Shown here piece after piece: positions 22,261 through 50,939 of a stretch of DNA of 64,000 bases. The stretch comes from Thermoplasmata archaeon UBA184. GTDB lineage: Archaea > Thermoplasmatota > Thermoplasmata > Lutacidiplasmatales > UBA184. The DNA lies in the NCBI GenBank assembly GCA_002495185.1, contig DAEB01000040.1, positions 29,184-93,183 on the forward strand, given 5' to 3'. Numbering within the stretch: the stretch's first letter is position 1; every line of letters begins with the position of its first letter. The notes under the pieces are model-generated. The model was not told the origin of the DNA, did no database searches, and was given only the letters and a program-made list of their open reading frames with translations. The translations under genes and the position numbers were made by a program.

Positions 22261-22284
22261 GCGGCGACCCGCCTCCCACGGTGA

Positions 22285-34978: not shown

Positions 34979-35388
34979 TCAGAGGGCCGAATCGCCCGCT
35001 TCACCGTCTTCAGAAGCAAGGAATCATCCGTGACGAGCGGGCAAGAGCGACCCTCGGCGAGTGTGGCATAGCATGCATCGTAGACAGTGACCATTCGGCG
35101 GCGTGCGAAATCCGCCGCAGCGCTGAGGTCGTTGGACGTGGGACGAACAAGGGAGATCTGGAGGTCGTAGAGGTAACGAATGGATTCCTCGAGGCGATCA
35201 CTGCCAATCGCGGGGTGGTATCGCAGGGCGTTGGCTACCTCGTAACAGATCAAATCGGGGGCCAGAATCCTGACCCGACCCTCGATGTGTTCATCTCGAA
35301 GAGCTCTCGCGTCGTCAGCGCCCTTTTCCGGGAGGAACCACTTGACCGCCACCGAGGCGTCGGCGACTATTTCCGGGATTCGCGCCAC
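34960..35388 (-). CDS. vapC: PIN-domain ribonuclease toxin (VapC-like)
   Basis: N-terminal IVADASVAVKWFLPE with the conserved Asp, plus downstream acidic residues in PIN spacing (ILAPDL, VTVYDACYATLAEG, LVTDDSLL). Confidence 0.7.
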   Translation of the reverse strand: MARIPEIVADASVAVKWFLPEKGADDARALRDEHIEGRVRILAPDLICYEVANALRYHPAIGSDRLEESIRYLYDLQISLVRPTSNDLSAAADFARRRMVTVYDACYATLAEGRSCPLVTDDSLLLKTVKRAIRPSEWTAQK

Positions 35389-35621
35389 TTGCGGATTTCC
35401 CGGGTGGAGGCGTAAGGAAGTACCGGGAGGCTCTTTCGCATCGCATCCATTCTGCGCGCGGCACGCCGAGCGCGAGCTCGGTCAATGGGCTGCCGCAGGT
35501 CCTCCTCGATGTCGAGGCGCTCCCGGAGTGCCGATCGTACAACCTCCGCCCAATTCACGTCCTTCATACTGGCCATTCTGCCTCGTGTCGCGGAGTCTAC
35601 CCGGACGCTGATGACATCCAT
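35367..35621 (-). CDS. vapB: ribbon-helix-helix-type antitoxin (VapB-like)
   Basis: MDVISVRVDSATRGRM (beta-strand) followed by helical segments (VNWAEVVRSALRERLDIEED). Overlaps the VapC start by 22 nt. Confidence 0.55.
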   Translation of the reverse strand: MDVISVRVDSATRGRMASMKDVNWAEVVRSALRERLDIEEDLRQPIDRARARRAARRMDAMRKSLPVLPYASTREIRKWRESRK

Positions 35622-35786: not shown

Positions 35787-38237
35787 TCACAACAGCGCGC
35801 TGGTTTCGAACCCGAAGAGGTAGGCGTTACCGATTCCACTCGTGTGGTCCGAACCCTGACCGTCGGCTCCCACAACCACTCTCACGGCCTCGAAGACGGA
35901 CTGCCCGAATTCCCCGCCAAACTGTGCGTCGGGACTGTAGTATCGGTCCATCGGGACGCCGGTGCCCGCGTTGTACATGTAAACGGCCCCCGCCCCTGAG
36001 AAACCGACCGAAGTATCCCCCGGAGCGCCGACGATCACGGTACCTCCGTTCGTGGAAACGCTCGTGCCAAAATGCGCGCCCTGCTGGACCTGCGTGCTGA
36101 TCAGGGTGGCTACGAGCGAAAACGTCGATTGCGAGAAGATGTAGGCCCGACCAGCGTCGAGGTACCCCTGGACGGTCTCCGAGGGAGCACCGATAATGAT
36201 CGTACCCCCGGAGACCGAGACCGATTCCCCGAAGAATCCGCCGCCTTGCGCGTTCGGGCTAAAGAACGACGCGATCGCCGCACCGGTCGTCGAAGAGTTG
36301 AGGTAGGCCCGGCCGGCGCTGCCTGCGGCGCCCACGCTCTCGCCCCAGGCCCCGACGAGCGTGTCGCCGCCACTGATCGACACCGAGATCCCGAACTCGC
36401 CACCCGAGGAGACGTGTCCACTTGCCATCGACGTGACGAGGGCGCCCGTCGACACGTTGAAGACGTACGCGCTCCCCGCATTGCCCAGACCCCCGACGGT
36501 CGCAAGAGGAGCTCCGACCGCCACCAAGCTTCCGCTCAGCGCGACGCTGAATCCAAAGAACGCACCGGGCATCGGGCTGGGCGTCGTCCAAGTCCGGTAG
36601 AGGGAAAGGTCGGACTCATTGAACACGTAGACCTCTCCTTGGAGGGTCGATCCGCCGGGCGACTCTCCCGGGGCCCCGACGACGATCCAGTTCCCGTTGG
36701 TCGCGACCGACCGGCCGAAGAACCCGTCGACGGTCGGGTTCGGGCTCATCAGCGTCTTTACCGCGAGGCTGGGACTGGGATCGACCGGCACGACGTACAC
36801 ATCCCCTTCCTGGGTGACCCCGCCGGGACTCTCCGAGGGAGCTCCCGCAACCATCACGCCTCCACCCACCGCAACCGATCGGCCGAGGTCCCCACCGGCG
36901 ATGGCGTTCGGACTCGTCAGCTTCAGTGGGATCTGGTTGAACACGTAGGCGAGACCGGCTCGGAAGACGCTCGACCCGTTCTCGAATATGGCACCGACGA
37001 CGACCGTGCTGCCCGTCTCGGCGACCGAGAATCCGAATCGGCCGTTGTTCGGCCACCCCGGAGCGGAGAAGGCCGACGAGACGAGCTCTCCGCTCTGAAC
37101 GCTGAACAAGTAGGCGTTGCCGGCCTTGATCTGTCCCCCCGAAGTCTCTTCCTGCGCACCAATCACGACCGTCACAGGATCGATCGCTACATCTCCTCCG
37201 AAGAACCCATCGAAGGTGGGCGCGGGAGAGGTGAAGGTGATGGAGCCGTTCGTGATCATGTTGGTCTCGAATGCAGCGCCCGCGGATGCTATGGGTGGGA
37301 GGGACTCGGCGGGCGCCCCTCCGAGAACGGTGGTCCCACTGATCGAGACCGACCATCCATAAAGGGCGCCGATGGTCGGCACCGGGTTCTCGATCTCCTC
37401 GACCACGTTTCCGGTCGGGACGGCATAGACGTACACCGCACCCTCATTCAGGGTTCCACCGGTGGAGTCGTAGGGGGCGCCCACGGCGACGAGGTTGCCA
37501 CTGATCGCGACCGAGTTTCCGAGTGCCGCATCACTCTCGAGATTGGGACTGATGAGCAGGCGATATGTGTCCGTCAGAAGGTTGATCAGGTAGGCGTCGC
37601 CGGAGAAGAGATACCCCGACTGACCCTCGCTGGGAGCGCCCACCACGGCAAAGTTCCCGGAGAGAGCAACGGAGTTTCCGAAGGCGCCGCCCACCTCTCC
37701 TTCGGGACTGGTGAACGTCTGCAGCAGAGCGCCGCTGCTCGCGTTGAACAGGTAAGCATTGCCCGAGCTGCCCGCCCCGTTGGCCGATTCGCCCGGAGCT
37801 CCCACGAGAACGACGTTTCCACTGGCGGCCACCGAGTAGCCGAAGAGTCCCGTGACTTGGGGACTCGGACTGACGATTCGAAGCATCGCCCCCGTGGTCG
37901 AGTTCTCGATGTAGGCGGCCCCCGCCTCCGAGATTCCGAACGGGGCTTCGTTGGAGGCACCGATCACCACATAGGACGGTGTGACGACCACGGATTGCCC
38001 GAAGTGACCGGTCGATGCCGGTTGCGTGGAGCTCAGCGTGATGGGCAGGAATTGTGGGTCAACGGCCGTGGTCGTTGGCACCGGGGGCGCGTGGGGGGCC
38101 GTGGGCCCGGCGCCCGAGCCAGAATGCCCAGGAAACGGGACGAAGACAACCGCGAGCGAAGCGAGGACTACGACCGTCACAGCGGTGATTCGGAGCCACA
38201 GCGGTCGAGTTCGGAGGTGATAGGGGCGGCTTGACAC
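35787..38237 (-). CDS. secreted beta-propeller surface protein with ~12 FG-GAP-like repeats
   Basis: N-terminal signal anchor RPLWLRITAVTVVVLASLAVVFV. Repeated units of form SVA.SGN.V.VGAP..S..G...GAVYV(F) throughout (e.g. VVLVGAPGESANGAGSSGNAYLF). The antisense ORF 36072..38234 was rejected. Confidence 0.7.
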   Translation of the reverse strand: MSSRPYHLRTRPLWLRITAVTVVVLASLAVVFVPFPGHSGSGAGPTAPHAPPVPTTTAVDPQFLPITLSSTQPASTGHFGQSVVVTPSYVVIGASNEAPFGISEAGAAYIENSTTGAMLRIVSPSPQVTGLFGYSVAASGNVVLVGAPGESANGAGSSGNAYLFNASSGALLQTFTSPEGEVGGAFGNSVALSGNFAVVGAPSEGQSGYLFSGDAYLINLLTDTYRLLISPNLESDAALGNSVAISGNLVAVGAPYDSTGGTLNEGAVYVYAVPTGNVVEEIENPVPTIGALYGWSVSISGTTVLGGAPAESLPPIASAGAAFETNMITNGSITFTSPAPTFDGFFGGDVAIDPVTVVIGAQEETSGGQIKAGNAYLFSVQSGELVSSAFSAPGWPNNGRFGFSVAETGSTVVVGAIFENGSSVFRAGLAYVFNQIPLKLTSPNAIAGGDLGRSVAVGGGVMVAGAPSESPGGVTQEGDVYVVPVDPSPSLAVKTLMSPNPTVDGFFGRSVATNGNWIVVGAPGESPGGSTLQGEVYVFNESDLSLYRTWTTPSPMPGAFFGFSVALSGSLVAVGAPLATVGGLGNAGSAYVFNVSTGALVTSMASGHVSSGGEFGISVSISGGDTLVGAWGESVGAAGSAGRAYLNSSTTGAAIASFFSPNAQGGGFFGESVSVSGGTIIIGAPSETVQGYLDAGRAYIFSQSTFSLVATLISTQVQQGAHFGTSVSTNGGTVIVGAPGDTSVGFSGAGAVYMYNAGTGVPMDRYYSPDAQFGGEFGQSVFEAVRVVVGADGQGSDHTSGIGNAYLFGFETSALL

Positions 38238-38749
38238 GGTGTAGCACTCCCAACGGAGAGTGGTCTATAAACCTGCCGAAAGGCACCAACTGGCCGGTGG
38301 CCGACTACTTCGCCTACACGGCCCGCGTACCAGCCTCCACGCTGGAAGAGCGGATTCGAAGCCGTGTCTCAGGTGCAATCTGAATTGCATCCGCGACTCG
38401 CTCGGACCCCGAATGCTCGGGGTCCATACTTTCAGGGGCAGGTCGGTTCCCTCAGCAACCCGAGGCAAGCGAGGCGCCCTCTGAATTACGCATCCCACCG
38501 GTCGAACGCTGACCGAAGGCGGAGCTTCTCCCGCTTGGGGCGGCGCACCGAACCGGGCTCCACACACTCTCGGGGCGGACGGCGGTTATATGTCGCCGAG
38601 ACCTGAGTCAGCGATAGCGCGGCTCAAACATTCAGAAGATTGGCGCGAAGGCACGTCACGGTCTCTTTCAGTCTGCCAAGTGACCAAGATAATAGACCTG
38701 TTACGTGATGCACCTCTGCGGGTCGGCAGCAGTGGGTACCTGATCGTCC

Positions 38750-39781
38750 TTGACGAGTTTGTCGTGTCTTGTAACTGCCTTCAATCGCCGCGAGTTCCTC
38801 GTTCAAGCCTTAACGTCTGCACTTTGTCAAGAATCTATCTCGGAGTCGTATGAGATTGTCTTGCTGACAAATCTTGACATCACGGGGACCCAGGTCGAAA
38901 GAATCACAACAAGATCGCAGGGCGGACCAGAAATCAAGGTAGTCCACTGCGACAATGCAGGAGTGGGACGTTTTTTCTGGGCTGGAGTTGAGGCGTGCCA
39001 AGGGGAAGTTGTCTGTTTCCTAAACGACGATGACACCTGGCTCCCGCGCAAGCTCTCGGTTGTTGCAAGGATGTTTGATGCGAATCCTCGGCTCGGATTC
39101 TTCCGTCACAACTTCAGATATGTCGACCGTTTCGGCAAACCCCTGCCTGACCTCGATCGTCGGTGGAGTCGTAGACGTGGGAACCTGGTAGCCCCTGCCG
39201 AAGGGCAGGTTGTGCTTGGGGAGAAGCGCGATGTTTCGTCGATTCGGCACCTCAATCGCTACGCACCTTACGCAAATGAGTCCACTATGGCTGTTAGGCG
39301 GCGACTCTTGATGGATGTGAGCACAGAATTTCAAGAAATCTTGGCTGGAGAAGATGCTTTCTTGTATTTTTCAGCATTGTGTTCGCAGTACTCCCTTGCG
39401 GCTAGCGCTGAACCCCTTAGCGAATACAGAATCCATGGAACCAATGCTTCTGTGGCTCATTCTGCTTCTATAGTTGAGTCGACAAGTGCAAAGTTTGTCT
39501 CAGGCATTGACGAGTCGATGGAAGTGATTGTCCGAATGTGCAGCGACTCGCCTTACCCCGCCGTGGCAGACCTCGCTCGGCACCACAGCCTGCAGCTTCT
39601 AATTACTCGCGCGATAAACGGAGGAACTCGGCTGCCAGTGAATCTGCACCGCCAGGCACTCAATCTCATCGCCTCTGGATTTGCCCTCTCTCCGATCCAA
39701 GATCTCGGGATCTTGGCGTTACTGGTTCTCAACGACATCTCACCTTCGTTGTCGGGAAGAGCCTACAGGGCGGCGATCTGA
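38750..39781 (+). CDS. GT2-family glycosyltransferase (paralog 3 of 3; lower-GC copy)
   Basis: LSCLVTAFNRREFLVQALTSALCQ...EIVLLTNLD...VVCFLNDDDTWLP is collinear with 18445..19485 and 22285..23325. Lies in the lower-GC block. Confidence 0.8.
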   Translation: MTSLSCLVTAFNRREFLVQALTSALCQESISESYEIVLLTNLDITGTQVERITTRSQGGPEIKVVHCDNAGVGRFFWAGVEACQGEVVCFLNDDDTWLPRKLSVVARMFDANPRLGFFRHNFRYVDRFGKPLPDLDRRWSRRRGNLVAPAEGQVVLGEKRDVSSIRHLNRYAPYANESTMAVRRRLLMDVSTEFQEILAGEDAFLYFSALCSQYSLAASAEPLSEYRIHGTNASVAHSASIVESTSAKFVSGIDESMEVIVRMCSDSPYPAVADLARHHSLQLLITRAINGGTRLPVNLHRQALNLIASGFALSPIQDLGILALLVLNDISPSLSGRAYRAAI

Positions 39782-39833
39782 ATTGCACTCAGCCTGGAAA
39801 GGGCCACAGTTTCGTGATTTCTCGGCCATTACC

Positions 39834-42800
39834 GTGAGAGTTGGTCGGGTAATCCAGCAGTGGTTCATCGCGGAGCATCGATTCTGGAAGGTGGGTCTTT
39901 CGCTTGGATTCGGAGTCTTGACCCTGCTTTGGACATTGCCGCTAAACTCATTCGTGTACGGTCAAGATTCCTTTCACTTCTTTGTTCAGCCCTTCAACTA
40001 CAACTTCAGCCCGACCATTCCCTACAACTACGTCTACTCCAGCAGCACGCCCCTTTACGACACATCGCAGTACTTTTACCTGACAACTTTTTCACAGTTC
40101 TTCCACATATTGGGAATTTCGGACGCGCTCGCTGAACACGTCGAGATTGTTCTGGGTACGTCTCTAGCTGTATTCGGCCTAATCGATTTGATCCAACTCA
40201 CAGAACGGCTGAACCACAGTGACCGCCAAAGAGTCGACGGGTGGTTTCTTGCGGCGGCCTTCTTTGTGTTCAATCCGTTTTCTCTGAGTGTAGTTTGGTG
40301 GCACTTCGAGGCCTGGACACTCTTCTTTATTTTGACCCCTTATTTGATTTCCTTATGTCTCTCAATTTGCTTCTCGAAGAACCTTCCATGGAACAGACTA
40401 ATCGTCACAGTCATCGTTTCAATTCTCCTTGCACCGGGTCTAACAGGAGCCTACGGAATCTCGGCAGGGCTGATCTTCCTTTACACCGGGTGCGTAGTCG
40501 TTGGGCTCGTGATTACGGGGCGACTACAATGGACAGATGCCTGGAAGCGACTTTCTCTCGTCTTTCTCTCGGGGTTGCTGCTCCTGACATGGACTAACCT
40601 GCCTCTCCTGATTCTTGGACAGCAAGTAGGATTCGGCCTTCTTACGGGTCCCGGAATACCTCAGGAGTTTCTATATCAGTCGCGTCACACAAGTTTGTTG
40701 AACGTTGTGACTCTGCTTGGCCTCTCCTGGATTTATGATCACCCAGGTGCCTATGGATGGACTCCTCAGTTGGCGTACCTTCTCGGTGCGGCATTCATTT
40801 GTCCGGCGTTGTTGACTCTGTCTGGTTTCTTTCTCCGGAGCAGGCGCGAGGTATCGTTCCTGCTGCCATTTGTCCTGCTGTGCATTCTCATCTCAACGGG
40901 AAACAACCCTCCCGCGGGACCGGTCAACAACTTCCTGGTCAACCTCGGCGGCTTCGGGTCTTACTTGGTCAACCCGTACTACTTTGTATGTGAGTACTAC
41001 GCTGTGTTTCTGAGTATTATCATGTATCTTCTCTGGGTGGGTTCCACAAACGAGTTCCGTTCAGTGGGCGTAGAAAGCTCCACTGACGCGGGGGACTCTC
41101 CTAAACCCCCGGACAAGGCTCCTTACCTACAGAAGAAGAGTGCCTTGTTTCGAAGGACCAAACGAAAGTACTTGCGTCAGACAGCATTACTCGCGGTATG
41201 CGCGGTGCTGGTTGCCACGACCTCGGTCATGGCGGCTCCATTCATTGAGGGGAGGGTCTACGTCTCCACCGGGAGCTTCGAAGACCAATTCGTTCCACCC
41301 TCCGATCTTACGGACCTTTCGAATTTCTTCCAGCAGAATTACTCGGGTCCCATTTACTACGTCTTGGTGTTACCAATCAGTCCATCAAGCGTACCCCTTG
41401 TGAACTACTCAAATGGGCAATTCGTCGATTCTAGCGAGCTCCTGGCAAGTTACATCCCGTATCCGCTCTATTACGCAACCCCGAATTCCATTGGGAATTA
41501 CCTGTTTGATGGGATTGCTTCGGGCGCAGTCCTGAACTTTACAGTTCTTTTTGCAAGTCTGCACATTAAGTACATCGTCCTGAATCCTTTCTATGCGGCC
41601 CAACCCGGTCTTCCAACACATTCCCTCAATGGTTCGAGCTATAATGCCTCGGAGACGTCCATGCGACTATCGGCGGGACTTGGTCCCAGCAGTCGAGCTG
41701 GCCAGTTCGAGATCTTCACGGTCGCTGACGTGACCCCCATCGCGTACGTAGTGGCCAACCCGATGATTCTGAATTCGCCCAATCCCGGGTCGCTGATGGG
41801 CTTCATGTCAAGCTTGAAGAGCACGCCGTCGAACCTCGCATCCGCCTTGCGTCTAGCGATTTGGAGTCTGAATACGAGTACCGATTCAAACTTCTCAGTC
41901 GGCCAGGTCCTTCCGCTTAATGGCGGATTCCAGACCTTCTCAGTCGGGCCTAACGTAACGCCATACATCGTCAACGGATCCGGTTCGGTACAGACTTGGA
42001 ACACCTCTGCCACCGATTCTGGGATTCCAGGGGTTTCTTGGGACCCCACCACTGGGAAAGTTATGCTGGTTCCCGGGGAGATTCAGAGTCCGAATTCGAC
42101 GGCGGCCAACCTCACGACTCTGGTTCCTGTGAATGGATCATTCAGCAACCCCCTCGGAAGAGCTGGAACTCTTGGCTGGTGGTTACACGGGGTTCCACCA
42201 CCCCTTTGGTTCCATACCGATGTAAACGTAACTGCTCTGGCCCCCCGCAACTGGATTACAGTCACTGTTTCGCTTGGCAATGTTTCTATCCAATTGAGTT
42301 TGTACAACGACTCCTCAACGCAGAGCAGTGTGATTGCCGCAACCGCATTCAATGACGGCAACCGTTACGCATGGAACAATGCTGCACTGCCCGACGGGTT
42401 CTTTGATGGGATAGAAAGTATTGACACTTGGGTGAACTCAACTACCATTCGAGTGGCCACTGCTTCTCATCTTCCGGGGCGCCCGATCGTGTGGGACACA
42501 CTGAATTATTCGGGCGAGTACTTGTCGCACAACGGTGGGAGGAACCTAACCGCGGCTCCATCCGTTGCACCCGGCTTTCAGAGTTATTCGGTGACCGTTC
42601 TCGCCAATCAGGTCGGAGCCGAGTTGGTCGACCCATCTATCCTGAAACCATTGTCCTTCTCATACCTGCTCGATTGGCTTAGAGAGCGAACCCCTATGTT
42701 GCAGCAGCAGAGGGTTTCATTCAATCCAACGGGTCAGATATTGACCTCAGTTACGACCAATCAATCTACTCAGCCACTCTTTGTTGTACTCGATTTTCCT

Positions 42801-43091
42801 GCTACACCGTTCTGGCAGCTCTCTTCCAGTGCTGGCACGTCGACAAAGATAGCAAACCTTACCTACGCAAATGTCTACAAAATCTCGGACCTCGGCTCGC
42901 TTGGACAGGTCCACTTTACTTTGCAGTTCGAGGCACCTTACTTGGCGAGCGTTGAATTGTCCGGCGTAGAACTGGCCTTCGCATGCACGATCGGCGCTTG
43001 GCTGGGATTGACCTCGATTCGTCGAACTAGGCGTCTCCGACGGAATGATTCTGCCAGTTCAGAAACAAGGCCAGAGAACCAATCGCGCTGA
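39834..43091 (+). CDS. very large polytopic membrane protein (~1085 aa) with ~650-aa extracytoplasmic C-terminal domain and terminal TM segment; candidate GT-C-like enzyme
   Basis: N-terminal ~430 aa has about 11 hydrophobic helices (VGLSLGFGVLTLLWTL..., FLAAAFFVFNPFSLSVVWWHF..., etc.). First loop FVYGQDSFHFF contains an acidic residue. The C-terminal region is sequon-rich and ends in a hydrophobic segment (LAFACTIGAWLGLTSIRRTRR). Start taken at GTG 39834 after the GT2 stop; the first ATG of the ORF (39681) overlaps the GT2 gene. Confidence 0.6.
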   Translation: MRVGRVIQQWFIAEHRFWKVGLSLGFGVLTLLWTLPLNSFVYGQDSFHFFVQPFNYNFSPTIPYNYVYSSSTPLYDTSQYFYLTTFSQFFHILGISDALAEHVEIVLGTSLAVFGLIDLIQLTERLNHSDRQRVDGWFLAAAFFVFNPFSLSVVWWHFEAWTLFFILTPYLISLCLSICFSKNLPWNRLIVTVIVSILLAPGLTGAYGISAGLIFLYTGCVVVGLVITGRLQWTDAWKRLSLVFLSGLLLLTWTNLPLLILGQQVGFGLLTGPGIPQEFLYQSRHTSLLNVVTLLGLSWIYDHPGAYGWTPQLAYLLGAAFICPALLTLSGFFLRSRREVSFLLPFVLLCILISTGNNPPAGPVNNFLVNLGGFGSYLVNPYYFVCEYYAVFLSIIMYLLWVGSTNEFRSVGVESSTDAGDSPKPPDKAPYLQKKSALFRRTKRKYLRQTALLAVCAVLVATTSVMAAPFIEGRVYVSTGSFEDQFVPPSDLTDLSNFFQQNYSGPIYYVLVLPISPSSVPLVNYSNGQFVDSSELLASYIPYPLYYATPNSIGNYLFDGIASGAVLNFTVLFASLHIKYIVLNPFYAAQPGLPTHSLNGSSYNASETSMRLSAGLGPSSRAGQFEIFTVADVTPIAYVVANPMILNSPNPGSLMGFMSSLKSTPSNLASALRLAIWSLNTSTDSNFSVGQVLPLNGGFQTFSVGPNVTPYIVNGSGSVQTWNTSATDSGIPGVSWDPTTGKVMLVPGEIQSPNSTAANLTTLVPVNGSFSNPLGRAGTLGWWLHGVPPPLWFHTDVNVTALAPRNWITVTVSLGNVSIQLSLYNDSSTQSSVIAATAFNDGNRYAWNNAALPDGFFDGIESIDTWVNSTTIRVATASHLPGRPIVWDTLNYSGEYLSHNGGRNLTAAPSVAPGFQSYSVTVLANQVGAELVDPSILKPLSFSYLLDWLRERTPMLQQQRVSFNPTGQILTSVTTNQSTQPLFVVLDFPATPFWQLSSSAGTSTKIANLTYANVYKISDLGSLGQVHFTLQFEAPYLASVELSGVELAFACTIGAWLGLTSIRRTRRLRRNDSASSETRPENQSR

Positions 43092-44259
43092 ATCCTATGG
43101 ATAGGTTTCTTCGGACGGTGTCCGCCCTATCCGGAGAAACCGGCTCCCGTAAGCCCCGCTCGATCGCCGACTTCAGCTGGAGGTAGTCGCGGGGCGGGAT
43201 GAATTCGACTGGGTAGTTGAGGAGCTTTGCCGACTCCCTCAGCTGGGGTTGATCATAGGCTACAATCCGGATACCGCAAAATGCGCCACAGTTTAGCGCT
43301 CCCGAGTAACCTCCTGTTGCTAGATACGGAAGGACCATTAGATCGTGGCCCAGGATGAGAGGAACGGTGCTTTCCTCTGAAACCCGCCCTATGAAATTCA
43401 CTTGGTTTGACTCATATCGTGCCCTAAGCTCGGAAACTGTCGAAGCGTATTCAGGGAAGTTGGGATTTACGGAACCGGCGACCGTCACCTGCACGTCGGG
43501 ACGGTTCGCCAAGATGCTGCTCAAGACCTCTAGCGTGCCGGAAAGGTCCTTCTGGGGGCTCCAATTCCCGAAGAGAAGAATCTTCGAGGGGGCCGAGCTC
43601 TGATTCACCGGGATTGGCTTGCCGGAGTGCAGCGCAATTGCACCACTTACAAGCGATTCGACATACGGCAAGAAAACCTGAGACACCCCCTTTCTGAACT
43701 CCTTCTGAATGATGCTCACTTGACTCGGGAGAGGAACCACAACTCGAGTGGTGTTGATGAGAGCGCGCTCGAGGAGAGAAGCCACAACGCGAGCCAGAAG
43801 TGATGGCTCATACCCCATCTGAGCGAGGTCCTGTGTTTCGACCAAGCTATGCATGAAGGTTGTTACGGGGCGCCTTGCTGCAATTCTGACAATTGTCGGA
43901 AGGAGGAGTCCGAATGCGCTACACAGCCGGGACCTACCAAAGGATGTCGGGAAGATGTTGAAGAGGACTGAGTCAGTTTTCCTCGCGAAACGGGTCAGAA
44001 TCAGGCCCGCCCGAACCAGCGACGCCGCATCATTCACCTTCCAGACCCTGTGGAGCTCCAGCTTCGTGAATGCTCCCAGAGCCGGTGGGACTTGGCTAGA
44101 GGTCTGAGCCACCAAAACCACTCGACTGATGATGTCCGATTGGGAGAGCCCGAACACAATTCCCGTGGTCGAGTTGCCAGCAAAAGCATGGTCGGGGTAG
44201 AACACACCAAACACTAGTATCCTCTTTTGATTGGATGGCTGCTCACCCCCGATTGACAT
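43027..44259 (-). CDS. GT1/GT4-like glycosyltransferase
   Basis: ILLFGNWSPQKDLSGTLEVL...VNFIGRVSEE...LATGGYSGALNCGAFCGIRIVAYD resembles the GT-B C-terminal domain. Lower-GC region. Confidence 0.6.
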   Translation of the reverse strand: MSIGGEQPSNQKRILVFGVFYPDHAFAGNSTTGIVFGLSQSDIISRVVLVAQTSSQVPPALGAFTKLELHRVWKVNDAASLVRAGLILTRFARKTDSVLFNIFPTSFGRSRLCSAFGLLLPTIVRIAARRPVTTFMHSLVETQDLAQMGYEPSLLARVVASLLERALINTTRVVVPLPSQVSIIQKEFRKGVSQVFLPYVESLVSGAIALHSGKPIPVNQSSAPSKILLFGNWSPQKDLSGTLEVLSSILANRPDVQVTVAGSVNPNFPEYASTVSELRARYESNQVNFIGRVSEESTVPLILGHDLMVLPYLATGGYSGALNCGAFCGIRIVAYDQPQLRESAKLLNYPVEFIPPRDYLQLKSAIERGLREPVSPDRADTVRRNLSIGFSAIGSLALFLNWQNHSVGDA

Positions 44260-44464
44260 TTGACTAACTCATCACCTGATGGTCGCGAGCCGCCAAGCCC
44301 GCGATCTCGGTCAATCGAACGGAAGAGGCGATCCTAATCGTCATTTCGACCTTACCTACACCGATCCTATCTCTCCCTTGGTGTTCCGAGTAATGAATTG
44401 ATGTATGGAATGGTACTGCACTCACGCGCTCACGCGGAGCTGTCCGCCGCCGGCAAGAGATTGA

Positions 44465-45319
44465 ATGAATCTAGATCTGGAAATGGCCCCCCACTCACAC
44501 GGACCTGACCTAGAGCACTCGCAGGGCGGAAGTCATCAACCTGGACGGGGCGACGTCAGTGCCGAACTGTTGCGCTTCGTATATGCCCGGGGAGATCATG
44601 TCTCGCGTTACAAGCTTGCCGCAGCCCTCTCGCGAGGATGCCGCGTCCTAGACTTTGGCTGTGGACACGGGTTCGGTGCATTGTTTTTGGAACCGAGCTG
44701 TGAAAGTATCGTTGGAGTTGACACCGACCGGGGAGCCATCGAATGGGCGAGGTCTAACATTGAATCGCGAGCATCGAACGCGCGTTTCTTCCACGTTGAC
44801 GATCCCAAGATTAGGGGTCTGAATCGGCACTTGGACATCGTCTTGTCGTTCGAAGTCATCGAGCATGTCCATGATCCTCTCGCTCACTTGGGCACTCTTT
44901 GTGGGTTCGTGAGGCCGGGAGGTAGAATCGTCCTTTCGACTCCTAATGGAGGGATATCCGCCGGGAATCCTAGGATGTTCATGTCTCCCTATCACGTGAA
45001 CGAGTTCAGCTTGGGACAGCTTTCAAAACTTGTCGGGGCACGCTCGCGGTCGGCGTCTTATCTCGGACAGAGGAGAATTGATCGTCTCGATTCGACCATT
45101 CAGCAAGTCCGCAAGAGAGTGTTCTATCCGAAGGCAGGCCATGAGTCGACGCGCCCCGCGGACAGTTACAGGAGCGCTCTCGGGAGGAGTCTGGGAGACA
45201 CACTGGTAAACAAGATACCCAATTTTGCATCATTTTGGGAACTTAATCCAGTAAGCCAACAGTCACACGACCTTGGCTCGTACACGCACTTCATAGCCAT
45301 TTTCACCCCGGAATCCTAG
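44465..45319 (+). CDS. class I SAM-dependent methyltransferase
   Basis: VLDFGCGHGFGALFL (motif I), VGVDTD (motif II acidic), LDIVLSFEVIEHV, VRPGGRIVLSTPN. Confidence 0.75.
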   Translation: MNLDLEMAPHSHGPDLEHSQGGSHQPGRGDVSAELLRFVYARGDHVSRYKLAAALSRGCRVLDFGCGHGFGALFLEPSCESIVGVDTDRGAIEWARSNIESRASNARFFHVDDPKIRGLNRHLDIVLSFEVIEHVHDPLAHLGTLCGFVRPGGRIVLSTPNGGISAGNPRMFMSPYHVNEFSLGQLSKLVGARSRSASYLGQRRIDRLDSTIQQVRKRVFYPKAGHESTRPADSYRSALGRSLGDTLVNKIPNFASFWELNPVSQQSHDLGSYTHFIAIFTPES

Positions 45320-45357
45320 AATGAGCAACGTGCGTACGGAACTGCGGTCTAGGTTGC

Positions 45358-46485
45358 GTGCTCCGGTTGTTGATGATGAGTGATAGGACAGAGACGATTG
45401 GTATCGTCGCACCTCCCTTCAAGGTACTGCCTCTCGACGGGTATGGTGGGGTTGAGAGAGTGGTGGTAGATCGTTCATCTGCACTCCGCGAAGCAGGTTA
45501 TCGTGTTGAGTTGGCGGCTCCGACAAGCACGCCAAGTTTGGCGGATCGAACGACCCAGGTCAGGATAGTGAAAACGCCGAACCTGTCAGGTCCGACTTCC
45601 GGGGACAATGTACAGCGGGTGCGATGGCTCCTCTCGAGCGCACCATATGCGTTTCCTCTAGCTTACTCAAACTGCCGGTTCGATCCTTCGGTTCGAATAA
45701 TCTTCAACGATGCGTTTCGCAATGAGCTTTGGATAAGCTATCTGATGTCGGCTCGCTTTGGAGTGAGCCGGACAATCAATGTGCTGCACGGGTTCGTGAA
45801 CTGGGACTCAGTACCATACAAACAGCTCACACGGGCAGTGCGAGGACTGAATTTCGGAAGTCTGAATCGACCTACATACGATTGGATGAAGGACCGCGGC
45901 TTCAGAGTCTTCTACACACCTAATGGGGTTCGCATCCATTCGAATTTTCCTGCCGAACGACTCGTTCGTGAGAGTCTCTTGTTCGTCGGTAGAATTGATC
46001 GGATGAAGTCCCCCCACTTGGCAATCAAACTTGCGAAGATGTGCAAACGCCCGTTGAGAATTGTCGGACCGATTACCGATCTTGGATACTACCGTTCACG
46101 TGTTCAGCCGGAGCTTGGTGGCCAAATTGCCTATGTAGGAGAAGTTTCGGATCAAAGGCTGGAGGAAATCTTCCACGATAGCTCTGGGCTGGTCTACATC
46201 GGAACCTACAACGACCCGCTGCCGGATGTCTTATTGAGATCCATCACGCATGGTGTTCCGGTCATAGGAATCCGACCCGGTCCCTTCTCAGGCTTCCACG
46301 ATGTGGTGGTCGACGGACGGAATGGCGTCGTTTCGGATAGTATAGAAGGATTGGCCGCAAGAATCGACGACTTGGACCACTTCGACTCCGCCAGAATCAC
46401 AGCCGAGGCATTGGAGAAATGGTCGTGGGACAGTGTGATTCGGAGGTTCTACGAGCCGACTTTCAAACAGCTCCTCGCCGCGTAG
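45358..46485 (+). CDS. GT4-family glycosyltransferase
   Basis: LLFVGRIDRMKSPHLAIKLAK...VYIGTYNDPLPDVLLRSITHGVPVIGIRPGPFSGF. Confidence 0.7.
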   Translation: MLRLLMMSDRTETIGIVAPPFKVLPLDGYGGVERVVVDRSSALREAGYRVELAAPTSTPSLADRTTQVRIVKTPNLSGPTSGDNVQRVRWLLSSAPYAFPLAYSNCRFDPSVRIIFNDAFRNELWISYLMSARFGVSRTINVLHGFVNWDSVPYKQLTRAVRGLNFGSLNRPTYDWMKDRGFRVFYTPNGVRIHSNFPAERLVRESLLFVGRIDRMKSPHLAIKLAKMCKRPLRIVGPITDLGYYRSRVQPELGGQIAYVGEVSDQRLEEIFHDSSGLVYIGTYNDPLPDVLLRSITHGVPVIGIRPGPFSGFHDVVVDGRNGVVSDSIEGLAARIDDLDHFDSARITAEALEKWSWDSVIRRFYEPTFKQLLAA

Positions 46486-46561
46486 GACGCTCGTCGTGGC
46501 TTCGAAAACCTAGGCCCCTGGGGGGTGAATTGCCGAGCGTATCGAGCTCCAATCGATATAT

Positions 46562-48085
46562 TTGAAAGGAACATGGATTCCTGTACCACCGCGTGAGATG
46601 ACTCGGGCTCCGGACGTTCTAGTAATTGTCGGCGATTGCATCGGCAAGACCGGATTCGACAACGCTCGGCTGGCCGGCCATGGACTGCCTACGCTTGACA
46701 AACTCGCGAAGGCAGGGATCAGTTTCGAGGGTGCGATTTCCCCCTCGTCGTGGACCCTCCCAGCCCACGCGAGCATTTTCACGGGATTGTACCCTTGGAA
46801 CATTCGAATGCTGAACTCGCTGTCCACTCTTCCGGCCGGGACTAAGACTGTCGCGACCGAAGCCCTCAGCTCTGGTTACCGAACCGCTTCGTTTTCGTCA
46901 AATCCTTTCATTTCGCCGAGGACCGGGTTGACTCAGGGATTCTCGACGGTGAAGTGGGGCAGCTTTATCGAGGAGACTTTGCGCATGCCTTTCGTGCGGT
47001 CTCAGGGATCCCCTCCCAAGGGGAAAGCCCCCGCGACCGGTGTTCGACAAGTGGGGACCACGCTCCCCGACCAGCTTGTCAAACTCGGGCATTCCATCAT
47101 CGAGACCTATCCCTCGGCTTTGGACATGTCAATCCGATGTTGGACCAGATTGCACGCAGACCGCGCGATACCAAATCCGTGTGTGTCTCCTTGGATAGAA
47201 GCACATGTCGAATCCTGGCTTCGAAACATTCCACAGGACAGCCCAGCGTTCTGTTTTGTGAACTACATGGACGCCCACGAACCCTACGTTGGCGTCGAGT
47301 GTGGTTCCGCAGTGACATTGAGCTCCCTGAACCGGATGCGCGCTATTCGTCTCAGTGTTTCGAGGAGCAAGCGGACCGATAGACCGAGAGCGGATCCGGC
47401 GTTGGACGGGCTCAAATCATTGTACGAGCAGTCAATCCGAACAGTCGACTCCCGGATCGGAGTGATTCTTGATCTCTTTTCTCGGTATCGCGACAGTTCA
47501 AACTGCTGGATCTGCTTCCTCGGCGATCACGGACAGGTCTTTGGTGAGGATGGGAACCTGTTCCATGGGAGCGGGGGGACCGAGTCCCTCTTTCGCGTCC
47601 CGCTAATCATCAAACCCCCGCGATCTCAAGAACTCTGGGACCCGGCTAGTACACTAGTATCTCTCAAAGACTTGGGCAATCTTCTCTTTCGCGCAGTGAC
47701 GTCTACAACACGTGACCCTCCTGGCTTTGACATTCAATCCTGCTTTGTGCCTCGAGAGAATCGACTGATCTGGGCATTGGCCGATATCGGAACGTTCGCT
47801 CATGAAGGGAAGTCCCACGGCCTGCGACTGGATAGAGCTTCGACACATCACTTGCTCGCGTTCGCAGACAAAGATAGATTCGTCATCGACCCATCAGCCA
47901 AGTGCATTACCATCGTGAAGAGTTCACAATCTGTGGATGGGGGAGCAGCCCGTGGTGTCCCCGTGGAGTATGAGCGGTGGCTCCGCGAGGAGGCCGGGAA
48001 CGTGAGTCGAGCGCTCGATGCAGAGTCGGGCGTCGACCATGCGGATGCTCTGGAACGTCGGTTGCTTGCTTGGGGCTACGACTGA
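46562..48085 (+). CDS. sulfatase-like alkaline-phosphatase-superfamily protein, second copy with T-x-P-x-H motif
   Basis: SWTLPAHASIFTGLYPW and GDHGQVFGEDGNLFHGSG. Collinear with 28399..29934 (LDAHEPY, LF..TSDHGQ, RVPLI). Lower GC than the first copy. Confidence 0.75.
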   Translation: MKGTWIPVPPREMTRAPDVLVIVGDCIGKTGFDNARLAGHGLPTLDKLAKAGISFEGAISPSSWTLPAHASIFTGLYPWNIRMLNSLSTLPAGTKTVATEALSSGYRTASFSSNPFISPRTGLTQGFSTVKWGSFIEETLRMPFVRSQGSPPKGKAPATGVRQVGTTLPDQLVKLGHSIIETYPSALDMSIRCWTRLHADRAIPNPCVSPWIEAHVESWLRNIPQDSPAFCFVNYMDAHEPYVGVECGSAVTLSSLNRMRAIRLSVSRSKRTDRPRADPALDGLKSLYEQSIRTVDSRIGVILDLFSRYRDSSNCWICFLGDHGQVFGEDGNLFHGSGGTESLFRVPLIIKPPRSQELWDPASTLVSLKDLGNLLFRAVTSTTRDPPGFDIQSCFVPRENRLIWALADIGTFAHEGKSHGLRLDRASTHHLLAFADKDRFVIDPSAKCITIVKSSQSVDGGAARGVPVEYERWLREEAGNVSRALDAESGVDHADALERRLLAWGYD

Positions 48086-48248
48086 GGCACTTCCCGAGGT
48101 AGCGCTCCTTCGGCCACTTATGCTCAGTCGAAAGCATCGCTCCGATGCGATGCGCGAGCATCGAGCCAAAGCGAGCAATTGACGTGGCAACTTGACTCAC
48201 GTTGGCGAAGCTACATGCGTGAAATCGAACTTGCAGGACTCGTTATGA

Positions 48249-49145
48249 CTAGCCTAAGTGCGTGTAAAACCAGTGTGCAATCGCCCTCGTCGGTCTGGCT
48301 AGTCGCGGGTCGTTCATCATTCTAATCCCGATAAGGGATAGGAACATCGCCGGGATCGTTCGACTGAGATTCAACTTTGTGCTTGGGTCAGCACTCCAGT
48401 TCACAGGAACTTCCACAACACGGAACCCAGCACGTTCGAAGTGGAACAGCAGCGAAGCATCGAAGGCCCAATTCGTCAGGAAGACCTTCGGGAGGATACT
48501 CATGACCGCTTGGCGTCTGAAGAATTTGGCCCCGCATTGCGTGTCTTTTAGCTTCAAGCCCAAAACCACTCTCACCAGGAGGTTCCAGCTTTTCGAGAAC
48601 ACTCTTCTCGAAAAACGTGGATAAAGATCGCGATTGCTGCGATTGTCCCAGCGACTAGCAATTGCGCCTTCAGCAGTGGTCAACTCTGCCAAGAGATATG
48701 CCATGCTCACAGCAGTTATCGGCGCGTCCGCATCGATGAATCCGACGAGGTCGAACTTAGCTCTCCGAAAGCCTTCCATGACGGCGCCACCTTTGCCGAG
48801 ACGGTCTTCGAATTCAATAGCCCGTACCCCACGAGATTCGAATATTCGGGCGACCTCGGCCGTCCGGTCGGCTACACCATCGACGATCACGAGAACTTCG
48901 AAGGGTCTCCCGTACGATTCCAGGAGAGGCAGGTATCTCTCGAGTGCAATCGGAAGCCGTGCTTCTTCGTTCCAGGCGGGGATAATGAGGCTCACTCCAT
49001 CGGGCCCTTCAACCGGCTCTAACTGCTCTTCGTACCTTGACCCTGATACGGCCACGGGAAACTCGACGGCCGAACGTAGCGCCGCACTCCTGGGGAGGCT
49101 CGGCATCATGAAGGGGACCTCATGACTGGGGCGCAACAGATCCAA
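48249..49145 (-). CDS. GT2 glycosyltransferase, dolichyl/polyprenyl-phosphate hexose synthase-like (DPM1/AglD-like)
   Basis: SLIIPAWNEE, VLVIVDGVADRTAEVA, RLGKGGAVMEGF, FIDADAP, QCGAKFFRR are the motif set of Dol-P-Man/Glc synthase-type GT2 enzymes. Confidence 0.8.
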   Translation of the reverse strand: MDLLRPSHEVPFMMPSLPRSAALRSAVEFPVAVSGSRYEEQLEPVEGPDGVSLIIPAWNEEARLPIALERYLPLLESYGRPFEVLVIVDGVADRTAEVARIFESRGVRAIEFEDRLGKGGAVMEGFRRAKFDLVGFIDADAPITAVSMAYLLAELTTAEGAIASRWDNRSNRDLYPRFSRRVFSKSWNLLVRVVLGLKLKDTQCGAKFFRRQAVMSILPKVFLTNWAFDASLLFHFERAGFRVVEVPVNWSADPSTKLNLSRTIPAMFLSLIGIRMMNDPRLARPTRAIAHWFYTHLG

Positions 49146-49577
49146 TGAGACGCATTCATGTTAGCGTCCCGTAACTCCCACCTAAGTGCGCCGGGTCGTC
49201 GGGGCAGGCCGGAGATATCGCGATTGCCAGCACTCCACTAGGTTCAACCGCATTCACATCCGGGCGAATGGTATGTAGAGTCGACAATGGGGAATAAACT
49301 CTCGTTCGTCCGATTGGTTATTCAACAGGAAATGCACATCCGGCCCGGTCCAGGGTTCGCCTAACGTGCAATCGAGCGCCGGAACCAATGCTGCCAATTG
49401 GAGTTGCGACACAGTCCCTCTCGGTCAGGTGTAGTTCGGGATTAATGTCGAGTACCCCCCCCGCAAGCACGACGTTGGCTGTACCCTTTAGGCTGCGAGT
49501 ACCCCATGTTATACGTCGAGTTGTTGCAAGGCAGCTTGCAACCAAGTCTTCGTCTCGAACCGGTCCGTGTGGCAGGA

Positions 49578-50021
49578 CTACGCTCCCACCCACTCGGTCT
49601 CTGGAATCCCTTCGAAGTGCTTGTCCGCGGTGAGAACTCTCGCCCCAAGACAGCGAGCGAACGAAAGAATGATTGCATCGGCGAAGCTCGGGAGGCCAAT
49701 CTTTCGGATACGGCCGCGTTGTCGCAGTTCCTCGTCAGCGCTGATTGCTCCCAAGGCGACATCGATGTCTATGGATTGAATCGTGCTGAGGGCCCCCATC
49801 GACCGAAGGTGCCCGACAATCTGGTCGCGTTCCATCCCCTGACGTGCGAACACCCTCGCCAGTTCCGCCAGCACGATGTCCGGCGTGACCAGATCGCCTG
49901 AAGACTCGAATTTCTCGCGGACCCTCGGCCCCCGGGGGCCAGCGGTAAGGAACTCGACCCAAGCGTAGGAGTCAACGATCAGCGTCAAGACGGTCCGACT
50001 CCCGGAACGCACGCATCCCAC
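49578..50021 (-). CDS. vapC: PIN-domain protein (VapC-like toxin)
   Basis: LIVDSYAWVEFL with conserved Asp, then LTADKHF. The start is probably internal (near 49990). Confidence 0.6.
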   Translation of the reverse strand: MGCVRSGSRTVLTLIVDSYAWVEFLTAGPRGPRVREKFESSGDLVTPDIVLAELARVFARQGMERDQIVGHLRSMGALSTIQSIDIDVALGAISADEELRQRGRIRKIGLPSFADAIILSFARCLGARVLTADKHFEGIPETEWVGA

Positions 50022-50202
50022 GAGCGCTCCCGTAGATCTGGGCGACGAGCTCCTTGCGTTTCACGGCAAGGAGAGTACGAATCGCGTCGTCCAGGGTCCT
50101 GCTTCCAAGCGCCCGTTGAAACCTCTCCAGTTCAGAAAGGGTTTCACGGGACACGCGTACCGAGCTGATCGCAGCAGACATCTCGGCGTGTGCATGCCGC
50201 AT
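49972..50202 (-). CDS. putative antitoxin partner of the PIN protein
   Basis: 76-aa ORF overlapping the PIN gene start. SRETLSELERFQRALGSRTLDDAIRTLL is helical. Confidence 0.4.
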   Translation of the reverse strand: MRHAHAEMSAAISSVRVSRETLSELERFQRALGSRTLDDAIRTLLAVKRKELVAQIYGSARGMRAFRESDRLDADR

Positions 50203-50359: not shown

Positions 50360-50734
50360 TTACCGGACGAACTGAACGCCCTCGACGCCACGAAACGCGG
50401 GATCCCCCGTCAGGAACGGTACCCCGAGATTCCCTGCCGCGGCGTATCCCCAGGCGTCGATGTAGGAACAGTCCTTCCGATGGGACCTCATGGATTGGCG
50501 AAACTCACCTGCAATGAAAGCAACCTCCGGCGGAACCGGGACGATCATGGCCAGGATGCCCGATGCGAGCTCTCGGCTCTCGACGGGATCGATGCGGCGC
50601 AAGAGAGTAGCGTAGACCTCCAAGAGATTCAGGGAGCTCGTCACTACATCCTTACGTCGGAATATGCGGACGTAACGCTCGTTTCCCTCGAGGACCGCTA
50701 CGAGGGCGTAGCTATCGGCGAAGAGGTCAACCAA
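50360..50734 (-). CDS. vapC: PIN-domain protein (VapC-like toxin)
   Basis: MVDLFADSYALVAVLEG with conserved Asp, plus downstream YIDAWGYAAAGNLGVPFLTGDPAF. Confidence 0.65.
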   Translation of the reverse strand: MVDLFADSYALVAVLEGNERYVRIFRRKDVVTSSLNLLEVYATLLRRIDPVESRELASGILAMIVPVPPEVAFIAGEFRQSMRSHRKDCSYIDAWGYAAAGNLGVPFLTGDPAFRGVEGVQFVR

Positions 50735-50939
50735 GGTCCTCGCCCTCGTTGCTCAATCGGGTGAATTCGTCGGCGGTAAGCCTTCCTTTCAGCCGCCCCG
50801 CCATTTGGACGAACTTCGGAAGACGCTCGAGCGAGACGTAGAGCTCGTCCCCAGGGGAGAGCTTCAGATCCCGGACCATCTCGTGGGGGATCGGCAACCC
50901 GAGGGAGTTTCCCGTTCGTCGGACGACCAGCTTCGGCAT
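50727..50939 (-). CDS. vapB: AbrB/MazE/SpoVT-family antitoxin (VapB-like)
   Basis: RRTGNSLGLPIPHEMVRDLKLSPGDELYVS is a swapped-hairpin AbrB-type motif. Overlaps the PIN start by 8 nt. Confidence 0.6.
   Translation of the reverse strand: MPKLVVRRTGNSLGLPIPHEMVRDLKLSPGDELYVSLERLPKFVQMAGRLKGRLTADEFTRLSNEGEDLG

Follow-up and report, generated by a model that had tools for sequence, protein, structure and literature searches.

Replacement flexible genomic islands occupy the same location and serve the same function while carrying different genes; they present no hallmarks of illegitimate recombination and they encode exposed structures (Lopez-Perez et al. 2014, PMC4033161). The cell-wall island of Haloquadratum walsbyi represents an archaeal case (PMC4535781). 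Glycosyltransferases (GT) of the GT2 and GT-C types are also known to form, together with a flippase, three-component systems of extracytoplasmic glycosylation (PMC11127046), and the GT-C enzyme AftD possesses a large periplasmic part with three carbohydrate-binding modules (CBMs; bioRxiv 10.1101/2019.12.22.885152). We analyzed a low-GC block of seven genes found in 64,000 nt of the genome of Thermoplasmata archaeon UBA184 (GenBank assembly GCA_002495185.1, contig DAEB01000040.1, positions 29,184 to 93,183 of the forward strand); this whole stretch is hereafter called the window and all positions refer to it. Our results indicate that the block is probably the allele that this genome carries of a hypervariable surface-glycan locus of lower GC-content, which would make it a replacement-type flexible glycosylation island. 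One of its genes encodes a giant membrane protein with a predicted AftD-like fold, and this unannotated family of AftD-like GT-C proteins is the most novel element of the locus.

Base composition and limits of the block

The block, its seven genes and its two borders are arranged as follows (E, E-value).

38581..49790, no strand: low-GC block (GC-content of 0.54 versus 0.66 elsewhere), defined by change points, GC profile, tetranucleotide signature, GC-content at third codon positions (GC3) and codon adaptation index (CAI)
38238..38749, no strand: intergenic gap of 512 bp between the FG-GAP gene and the cassette, with the GC step at ~38581-38600
38750..39781, + strand: GT2 (PF00535, E=1.9e-13)
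39834..43091, + strand: giant AftD-like GT-C (by AlphaFold and Foldseek), 1085 aa from the GTG at 39834; the open reading frame (ORF) opens at 39681
43027..44259, - strand: GT-B glycosyltransferase of the GT1/GT4 group (PF13692 and PF00534)
44465..45319, + strand: S-adenosylmethionine (SAM)-dependent methyltransferase of the Methyltransf_23 type (PF13489, E=1e-19)
45358..46485, + strand: GT4 (PF00534 and PF13439)
46562..48085, + strand: sulfatase-like enzyme of the alkaline-phosphatase superfamily (PF00884, E=1.7e-18)
48249..49145, - strand: GT2 resembling polyprenyl/dolichyl-phosphate glycosyltransferases, at the right-hand GC boundary (hereafter the boundary GT2; PF00535, E=2e-20)
49146..49577, no strand: intergenic region upstream of the boundary GT2, with a graded return to host GC (GC 0.54-0.58)

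The GC-content of the window drops markedly over this region. Outside of 33-55 kb, 1-kb windows present a mean GC-content of 0.668 (standard deviation 0.018; minimum 0.626), relative to 0.538 for the ten 1-kb windows from 38.6 to 48.6 kb (standard deviation 0.018; maximum 0.572), a decrease of 7.2 host standard deviations. When two change points were fitted to GC by maximum likelihood, the limits of the block fell at 38,581 and 49,790, for a log-likelihood gain of 275. In a 300-nt profile, the left edge is sharp, with GC going from 0.61 down to 0.52 across ~150 nt, at ~38,581-38,600 within the gap at 38238-38749, which is presumed to be a divergent promoter region. At the right edge, GC rises gradually, across the 432 bp that separate the boundary GT2 from the first VapC gene and on into the latter, to ~49.8 kb.

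The difference in GC-content is mostly synonymous and is concentrated at third codon positions: GC3 ranges from 0.55 to 0.64 in the seven block genes versus 0.77-0.92 in host genes, with a similar GC-content at second positions. Codon adaptation was computed relative to the window's own host-GC genes, the window being devoid of ribosomal genes, and the values for block genes (0.36-0.42) and host genes (0.60-0.79) do not overlap. We also compared tetranucleotide z-scores, a signature from which lower-order composition is removed. The correlation with the host was r=0.17 for the block, relative to r=0.66-0.83 for host chunks of equal size. The block thus looks compositionally foreign, and it is a genuine feature with clear limits, embedded in a wider atypical region, since the tetranucleotide correlation is lowered from ~28.5 kb to ~54 kb. 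Two transition zones, at 33.4-38.3 kb and 49.6-54.8 kb, present intermediate values (GC3 of 0.67-0.78 and CAI of 0.42-0.64), and they contain four PIN-domain genes and several small ORFs without family.

Sequences typical of mobile elements were not detected. Pfam searches, which included the small ORFs of both boundary gaps, revealed no integrase or transposase domain, and these small ORFs had no Pfam match at all. No tRNA gene was found, an Rfam search gave no match, and the search for direct or inverted repeats flanking the block returned only short matches, none above chance length. The hallmarks of an integrative genomic island of the integrase/tRNA/att type are therefore missing from the block. 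A preliminary description of this DNA, made from the sequence by eye, had reported an AT-richer block encoding the same seven kinds of proteins in a window where no integrase or tRNA was seen, and had proposed sliding-window GC, tetranucleotide, codon adaptation and flank repeat analyses. The contrast, the gene content (now by Pfam, with the giant reassigned as an AftD-like GT-C by predicted fold) and the lack of integrase and tRNA genes all held in these analyses. The limits given for the block needed revision: its left edge lies inside the 512-bp gap rather than at the gap's start, and its right edge lies at ~49.8 kb rather than at 49.2 kb.

Recurrence of the locus in related genomes

We further searched for related loci (designated by L and a number) using two anchor genes: the boundary GT2 and the gene on the left side of the block.

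35787..38237, - strand: left-hand anchor gene, encoding an FG-GAP surface protein that has a beta-propeller and is anchored in the membrane by its N-terminus (PF14312, E=1.5e-86, 9 repeats)

A scan of metagenomes with the boundary GT2 identified homologues at 40-57% identity. In five loci (L088, L096, L098, L099 and L121), the homologue is located exactly on a GC step, as in the window: GC-content is 0.62-0.68 upstream, versus 0.53-0.58 over the gene and the 8 kb or more that follow it, so that the two sides differ by 0.084-0.125. The same step is visible in L084, where the upstream flank is short (~1.1 kb), and the boundary GT2 of L168 is also on a GC step; the homologues in these seven GT2-anchored loci with a step are 40-55% identical to the boundary GT2. 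The low-GC sides of eight loci encode a similar toolkit, with GT4 in 12 ORFs, GT2 in 8, Methyltransf_23 in 7, FkbM in 4 and sulfatase-like domains in 3, and no mobile-element family is found among their 25 most frequent families. Each of these eight loci also contains one ORF of 1070-1330 aa with ~8-14 predicted N-terminal transmembrane segments and one C-terminal transmembrane segment. Two of these large proteins belong to the family of the window's giant (L099 and L121). Another three resemble it remotely (E=4e-14 to 1e-5), and for the last three no similarity could be detected; outside of these eight loci, the large proteins of L084 and L002 are also members of the family.

The most complete case is L168, a 113-kb contig with a 12-kb cassette for which both borders are present. 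Its cassette has a GC3 of 0.66-0.71 versus 0.83-0.85 in the flanks, and five of the seven island genes have homologues in it, which are 28-55% identical and differently ordered. More generally, cassette proteins are 26-55% identical between homologous loci and their order is shuffled, whereas neighboring genes are more conserved (58% for the NTP-transferase and 62-63% for the VapBC pair). An archaeal pilin is encoded among the flanks of related loci. Most of these loci come from JGI, ENA and Logan metagenomes whose habitat we take to be peat and soil, judging from their sample series.

The loci anchored on the FG-GAP gene are listed below with the amino acid identity of the anchor.

L169, 65% (67.5% at the DNA level): on the 5' side, a low-GC cassette with a 269-aa GT2, a 401-aa GT4 and an FkbM methyltransferase
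L176, 45%: on the 5' side, a low-GC cassette whose giant belongs to the same family (27%)
L166, a Thermoplasmata metagenome-assembled genome (MAG), 37%: on the 5' side, rml genes, a 1.5-kb gap with a GC drop, a GT2 (39%) and a giant (41%)
L172-174, 53-55%: no cassette on the 5' side in the sequence at hand
L175, 43%: no cassette on the 5' side in the sequence at hand

A cassette is thus located 5' of the FG-GAP gene in L169, L176 and L166 and not in L172-175, among relatives that are distant and whose other flanks are not syntenic. The L169 cassette, whose GC3 is 0.56-0.62 versus 0.74, shows no meaningful similarity to the island genes (best match of 23% over 113 aa). The proteins most similar to the giant and to the FG-GAP protein bear the name 'Thermoplasmata archaeon' in NCBI MAGs. 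In a collection of 15 billion proteins, we found no protein at least 90% identical to the flanking genes beyond the same genome.

A GC step coincides with the same boundary genes in at least eight independent related loci, from which we conclude that the low-GC glycan locus is an established trait of an uncultured group of high-GC Thermoplasmata rather than a one-off insertion. Since the cassettes found at this kind of site in different lineages draw on a common toolkit but are divergent or non-homologous, the content was most likely swapped by recombination in the flanking sequence rather than by site-specific integration. The function is equivalent and the genes are little related: they are unrelated in L169 and 26-55% identical elsewhere, with the same Pfam families throughout. 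Together with what may be the same site in some distant relatives, the lack of integrase, tRNA and att repeats, and borders devoid of hallmarks of site-specific or illegitimate recombination, this divergent content would fit the definition of a replacement flexible genomic island. In addition, the GC step of ~0.1 at a conserved boundary gene appears to constitute a lineage-wide signature usable for finding such loci.

The giant protein and its family

The giant protein is 1085 aa long (1085-1136 aa depending on the start), with ~11 N-terminal transmembrane helices, an extracellular beta-sandwich region of ~570 aa that contains 25 N-x-S/T sequons, and a C-terminal transmembrane anchor. A structure predicted by AlphaFold2 with the family alignment as input obtained a predicted local distance difference test (pLDDT) score of 83.6 and a predicted template modeling (pTM) score of 0.78. 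In this confident model, about eleven N-terminal helices precede ~570 residues of mixed and beta-sandwich structure, and the chain ends in a long helix. When compared with the PDB using Foldseek, its first match was mycobacterial AftD (6w98; E=2e-13), aligned along the whole length, followed by AftA (8if8; E=1.3e-3), and its C-terminal half matched beta-sandwiches of CBMs, lectins and GH43 appendages.

An exhaustive HMMER search of 1.84 billion representatives showed that the giant family comprises ~100 clusters at 50% identity; most members are 1020-1140 aa long and they are 25-30% identical. A word-index homology search with the giant or its family alignment had returned only the protein itself and one distant match; the homologues share few exact words. 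The closest homologue reaches 41% identity (L166; collection of 15 billion proteins), and members of the family carry source names no more specific than 'hypothetical protein'. Across 31 aligned members, residue D45 (motif LYGQDS) is conserved at 90% or more, and a further motif, NPFTLSVxWWHxExW, was identified. D45 is found in the first external loop of the model, between the first transmembrane helix (residues 2-33) and the next helix (78-92), so that the protein has the acidic residue of the first extracytoplasmic loop that characterizes GT-C enzymes.

These results suggest that the giant, judging from its predicted fold and architecture, is an AftD-like GT-C glycosyltransferase without being a member of the AftD family. 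From its linkage to the ArnC/DPM-like boundary GT2, it may use a polyprenyl-phosphate-linked donor on the outer face of the membrane. A membrane family so far unannotated would thereby gain a predicted structural identity and a donor pathway that can be tested. The possibility that the giant is a divergent second copy of the high-GC DUF2079 proteins of the window was also considered, and it was ruled out by an hhalign probability of 1%.

The other genes of the cassette

The boundary GT2 was matched in the PDB to ArnC (E=1.6e-12) and to the dolichyl-phosphate-mannose (Dol-P-Man) synthase of P. furiosus (5mlz; E=4.7e-8). It also matched the NCBIfam models ArnC, DPhHxTase_Halo and AglJ, all below their cut-offs. 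Because it resembles ArnC and dolichol-phosphate-mannose synthase, it is likely the maker of the lipid-linked donor of the giant. Its preliminary designation as a Dol-P-hexose-synthase-like GT2 is supported by these matches. For the left-hand GT2 (38750-39781), the best matches are weak and of the PglI/WcaA type; a homologue immediately precedes the giant gene in L002, L083/L166, L084/85, L121 and L168.

The GT-B transferase at 43027-44259 is 35-37% identical to genes located beside the boundary GT2 in L093 and L096, and the GT4 at 45358-46485 is weakly similar to Agl16 and 37% identical to a GT4 of the L168 cassette. The methyltransferase is 31% identical over 268 aa to that of the L002 cassette, and Methyltransf_23 domains are found in 7 of 52 cassette ORFs of the relatives; it is probably a sugar O-methylase.

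The sulfatase-like protein at 46562-48085 was aligned with choline sulfatase, which revealed that the formylglycine cysteine is replaced by Thr and the arginine by His (W-T-L-P-A-H). In place of C-x-P-x-R, the island gene thus presents T-L-P-A-H, while its high-GC paralogue in the window (28387-29934) and a gene of L002 (5861-7396) present T-I-P-S-H. Because Thr and His replace the formylglycine Cys and the Arg, and the C/S-x-P-x-R motif of type I (formylglycine) sulfatases is absent, its sequence indicates that this protein is not a canonical sulfatase. No transmembrane segment and no signal-like N-terminus were predicted in the sulfatase-like proteins of the glycan clusters. The subfamily of the sulfatase fold defined by W-T-[IL]-P-[SA]-H recurs in many related cassettes.

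The seven ORFs are all intact and they align over their full length with their homologues. The JGI annotation truncates three of them: the methyltransferase (112 vs 284 aa), the GT4 (199 vs 375 aa) and the sulfatase-like gene (102 vs 507 aa). Over 44465-48085, homology supports the full-length ORFs over the JGI calls, and the gene caller probably mis-scores starts within a block of deviant composition. This serves as a warning that standard gene callers truncate genes inside such blocks.

Genes flanking the block

The genes to the left and right of the block include toxin-antitoxin genes and a second glycan cluster.

49578..50202, - strand: VapC (PIN) gene (49578-50021) with an overlapping upstream gene for a 76-aa putative antitoxin (49972-50202) (PF01850, E=5e-12; NCBIfam VapC, E=5e-6)
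50360..50939, - strand: VapC (PIN) gene (50360-50734) with an AbrB/MazE-type VapB gene (50727-50939) (PF01850, E=5e-9; PF04014, E=2e-5)
34960..35481, - strand: PIN-domain gene of the left transition zone (PF01850, E=3e-10)
54089..54734, - strand: pair of a VapC (PIN, 54089-54526) and a MazE-like gene in the right transition zone, 62-63% identical to the L084 pair at 734-1355
13373..32463, no strand: host-GC glycan cluster with two DUF2079, two GT4, two GT2, an NTP-transferase, an ATP-grasp, a DegT aminotransferase, two epimerases/dehydratases and a sulfatase-like paralogue

The two VapBC-like pairs reported earlier at 49578-50939 were recovered, with PIN domains in both and a MazE/AbrB domain in one. 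In each, the PIN toxin gene is preceded by a small overlapping antitoxin gene, as in VapBC modules. The 76-aa partner has no family match, and its antitoxin role is deduced from position only. PADLOC gave no match for the PIN and antitoxin genes and only matched the AbiE genes at 3.4-5.2 kb. Toxin-antitoxin or defense genes are also encoded in the vicinity of three cassettes (L084, L168 and L176), at distances that vary: L168 encodes SIR2_2 together with PIN/VapB genes at 17785-19518 and 22263-22896 near its cassette, and a MazE-like antitoxin gene is found at the cassette border of L176 (9417-9644). In five relatives examined, no PIN domain is encoded within 6.5 kb of the GC boundary. These observations fit a co-residence of toxin-antitoxin genes in a flexible region, and we found no evidence for a stabilizing role.

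The AbiEi/AbiEii pair (3386-5154, + strand) was identified by PADLOC with E=3e-46 and 3e-56. Homologues of the two genes are present in a Thermoplasmata MAG (GCA_035502015.1, L173) with 58% and 72% amino acid identity. In L172/L173, the homologues of AbiEi/AbiEii, of an ORF with four transmembrane helices (30099-30659) and of the FG-GAP gene, as well as a VapC fragment, are found within 9 kb, whereas in the window their counterparts span 46 kb, a stretch that includes both glycan clusters.

The FG-GAP gene is transcribed divergently from the cassette. Together, the host-GC cluster and the island constitute a surface-glycan region of ~36 kb. The two DUF2079 proteins of the host-GC cluster are 33% identical to each other, and they are probably functional analogues of the giant. 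The same cluster contains the 186-aa ORF at 30099-30659 (+ strand), with four predicted transmembrane helices and no Pfam match, which is 73% conserved in L172/L173. Although outside of the block, it is a loose candidate for a small flippase of lipid-linked sugars.

Several other genes of the window were noted. An S9 prolyl-oligopeptidase-family gene (51083-52954, + strand) is located in the right transition zone of intermediate GC-content. Its best homologues, at 55-59% identity, belong to Nitrososphaerales-labelled MAGs and Chloroflexi and not to Thermoplasmata, and a scan of the genome collection revealed no synteny around them; this gene may itself have been horizontally acquired. A large protease with a thermopsin domain, an archaeal marker, and PKD domains (9247-12405, - strand) is secreted or anchored and contains 19 N-x-S/T sequons; it is a probable glycoprotein. 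Finally, a 524-aa protein (639-2213, - strand) presents ~8 predicted transmembrane helices, no Pfam match and no N-glycosylation sequon.

Origin of the block

The composition of the block could also be explained by a single acquisition, in which an island from a lower-GC donor was recently inserted by an integrative or mobile element and was kept by the adjacent VapBC modules. The strong compositional contrast and the sharp left edge are in line with this scenario, as are the two VapBC pairs directly to the right of the block, the two additional PIN genes within 6 kb of its edges and a giant without any homologue above 41% identity among 15 billion proteins. We nevertheless consider it improbable: integrase, transposase, tRNA and direct repeats are all lacking, the same boundary gene and GC step are found in at least seven related loci, the best homologues of the island genes reside in those same low-GC cassettes with high-GC flanks, and the five relatives encode no PIN domain less than 6.5 kb away from the boundary. 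A chimeric contig joining two organisms is another conceivable origin, given that the sequence comes from a metagenome contig, which corresponds to contig Ga0120198_0000106 (80.8 kb) of the JGI metagenome 3300039002, and that some JGI gene calls in the block are truncated. Such a join is very unlikely, because the same island and flank proteins (the giant and GT1 of the island and the flanking FG-GAP, PIN and S9 proteins) recur together on a contig of 193,644 bp across NCBI, ENA and Logan assemblies. The giant and the PIN protein compared on this contig are identical apart from the translation of an alternative start codon. Both flanks of the block also share one host signature (r=0.66-0.83), and the same architecture is observed in many independent assemblies.

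An alternative closer to our interpretation is a native locus inherited vertically without exchange, whose composition would result from weak expression or relaxed codon selection, from AT-rich regulatory or structural selection, and from fast diversification of the glycan genes. The conservation of the cassette type and anchor position across distant relatives, the concentration of the GC difference at third codon positions and the five of seven genes with homologues in L168 are all compatible with such a history. This explanation appears rather unlikely to us given the decoupled tetranucleotide signature (r=0.17), the intergenic GC step within ~150 nt, and the shuffling of gene order and content between loci. 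Moreover, the closest FG-GAP relative (L169) carries a cassette without detectable homology, and the host-GC glycan cluster, which encodes the same enzyme classes, shows no GC depression.

The interpretation that we favor, a recurrent locus whose cassettes are exchanged, faces several opposing observations. A persistently low GC-content could arise without exchange, and two GT2-anchored loci (L105 and L092) show no GC step. Orthology of the FG-GAP anchor is uncertain, since paralogues exist, and synteny between loci does not extend to flanking genes beyond the two anchors. No relative was found closer than ~65% (FG-GAP) or 57% (GT2) amino acid identity, and replacement at the strain level was not observed. 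Regarding the enzymes, the giant has no match in Pfam, NCBIfam or PDB sequences, and its similarity to AftD, based on a predicted structure, reaches a template modeling score (TM-score) of 0.45 over the ~1400 columns of a multidomain alignment. Neither a flippase (GtrA, SMR or MATE type) nor an oligosaccharyltransferase is encoded by the seven block ORFs.

The preliminary description had proposed a horizontally acquired surface-glycan variation cassette stabilized by addiction modules. The variation cassette is supported by the unrelated cassette at the same side of the FG-GAP gene in L169 and by the divergence of the others (26-55% identity). As for its acquisition, the composition does look foreign, whereas the recurrence of the GC step in at least eight related loci argues against a one-off insertion, and the stabilization by toxin-antitoxin modules is unsupported, given the five relatives without nearby PIN genes. 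Several island genes had also been viewed as second copies of high-GC genes; this applies to the GT2 (29-32% identity) and to the sulfatase-like protein (29%), while the other island genes have no paralogue among the high-GC genes of the window. A block conserved and syntenic in all relatives would have spoken against a variable cassette, and half of this pattern was observed: loci of this type are found again beside the same anchors, but their genes are either hyperdivergent or replaced, and synteny is missing from the remaining flanks.

A possible pathway encoded by the cassette

The gene content suggests how the cassette might operate. The cytoplasmic GT2, the two GT-B transferases (GT1/4 and GT4) and the methyltransferase would build or decorate a dolichol-linked glycan, while the boundary GT2, similar to ArnC and DPM synthase, would charge dolichyl phosphate with a sugar. 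A flippase would then flip this lipid-linked sugar, and the giant GT-C would transfer it to a surface glycan at the outer face of the membrane, where its lectin- and CBM-like beta-sandwich domains could hold the acceptor, as in AftD. The acceptor may be the glycan of a glycoprotein, such as the neighboring FG-GAP protein, or a lipoglycan of the Thermoplasma type. The Thr/His sulfatase-like enzyme would probably handle a phosphoester substituent. Swapping the cassette would change the 'serotype' of the cell surface, presumably under the pressure of viruses or predators.

In its most far-reaching form, this scheme would describe a serotype-like system of peat and soil Thermoplasmata at one recombination-exchanged and persistently low-GC locus, with an undescribed archaeal family of AftD-like GT-C enzymes at its core that uses dolichyl-phosphate sugars. 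We propose this form tentatively and regard it as doubtful. If true, the cassette would represent an archaeal counterpart of the assembly of mycobacterial arabinan and lipomannan, in which a Thr/His sulfatase-like enzyme adds or removes a phosphoester.

Comparison with known systems

Within the window, the giant resembles the pair of DUF2079 proteins (PF09852, which we take to belong to the GT-C clan of Pfam) in being a large polytopic membrane protein encoded beside GT2 and GT4 genes. The DUF2079 proteins differ from it by their size (772-902 aa), the lack of a C-terminal anchor, their few sequons and the hhalign probability of 1%.

The cassette shares with the three-component GtrA/GtrB/Gtr* systems, which diversify surface serotypes, the combination of an ArnC/DPM-like polyprenyl-phosphate GT2 and a GT-C. 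The haloarchaeal AglD/AglR/AglS follow the same logic. The boundary GT2 (48249-49145) corresponds to the GtrB/ArnC/DPM1-like component, but no dedicated flippase gene is present in the block. Unlike in these systems, the neighbor of the GT-C is invariably a GT2 of the PglI/WcaA type, with the DPM-like GT2 encoded at the other end of the cassette. The giant GT-C is also two to three times larger than Gtr* or AglS.

Like AftD, the giant combines an N-terminal GT-C module with multiple transmembrane helices, a very large extracytoplasmic part composed of beta-sandwich or CBM-like domains and a C-terminal transmembrane helix, and it is genetically linked to a polyprenyl-phosphate sugar pathway. 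It differs from AftD by a sequence identity of ~10%, the lack of a Pfam match, its ~11+1 transmembrane helices versus 16 and its length of 1085 aa versus ~1400 aa. The host being an archaeon, the carrier would be dolichol rather than decaprenol.

Finally, the block differs from the replacement islands cited above in that our comparison spans genus-level or deeper distances rather than strains of one species, and in that it pairs a host from peat or soil Thermoplasmata with a cassette containing an AftD-like GT-C. It resembles the replacement islands formed by O-chain, S-layer and flagellin glycosylation clusters in several respects: what may be the same kind of site in different genomes, an equivalent function, divergent or unrelated genes, an atypical composition, no integrase or att hallmarks, and the synthesis of an exposed structure. 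These similarities suggest that the pattern of replaceable glycosylation islands extends from aquatic bacteria and haloarchaea to uncultured Thermoplasmata of soil and peat.

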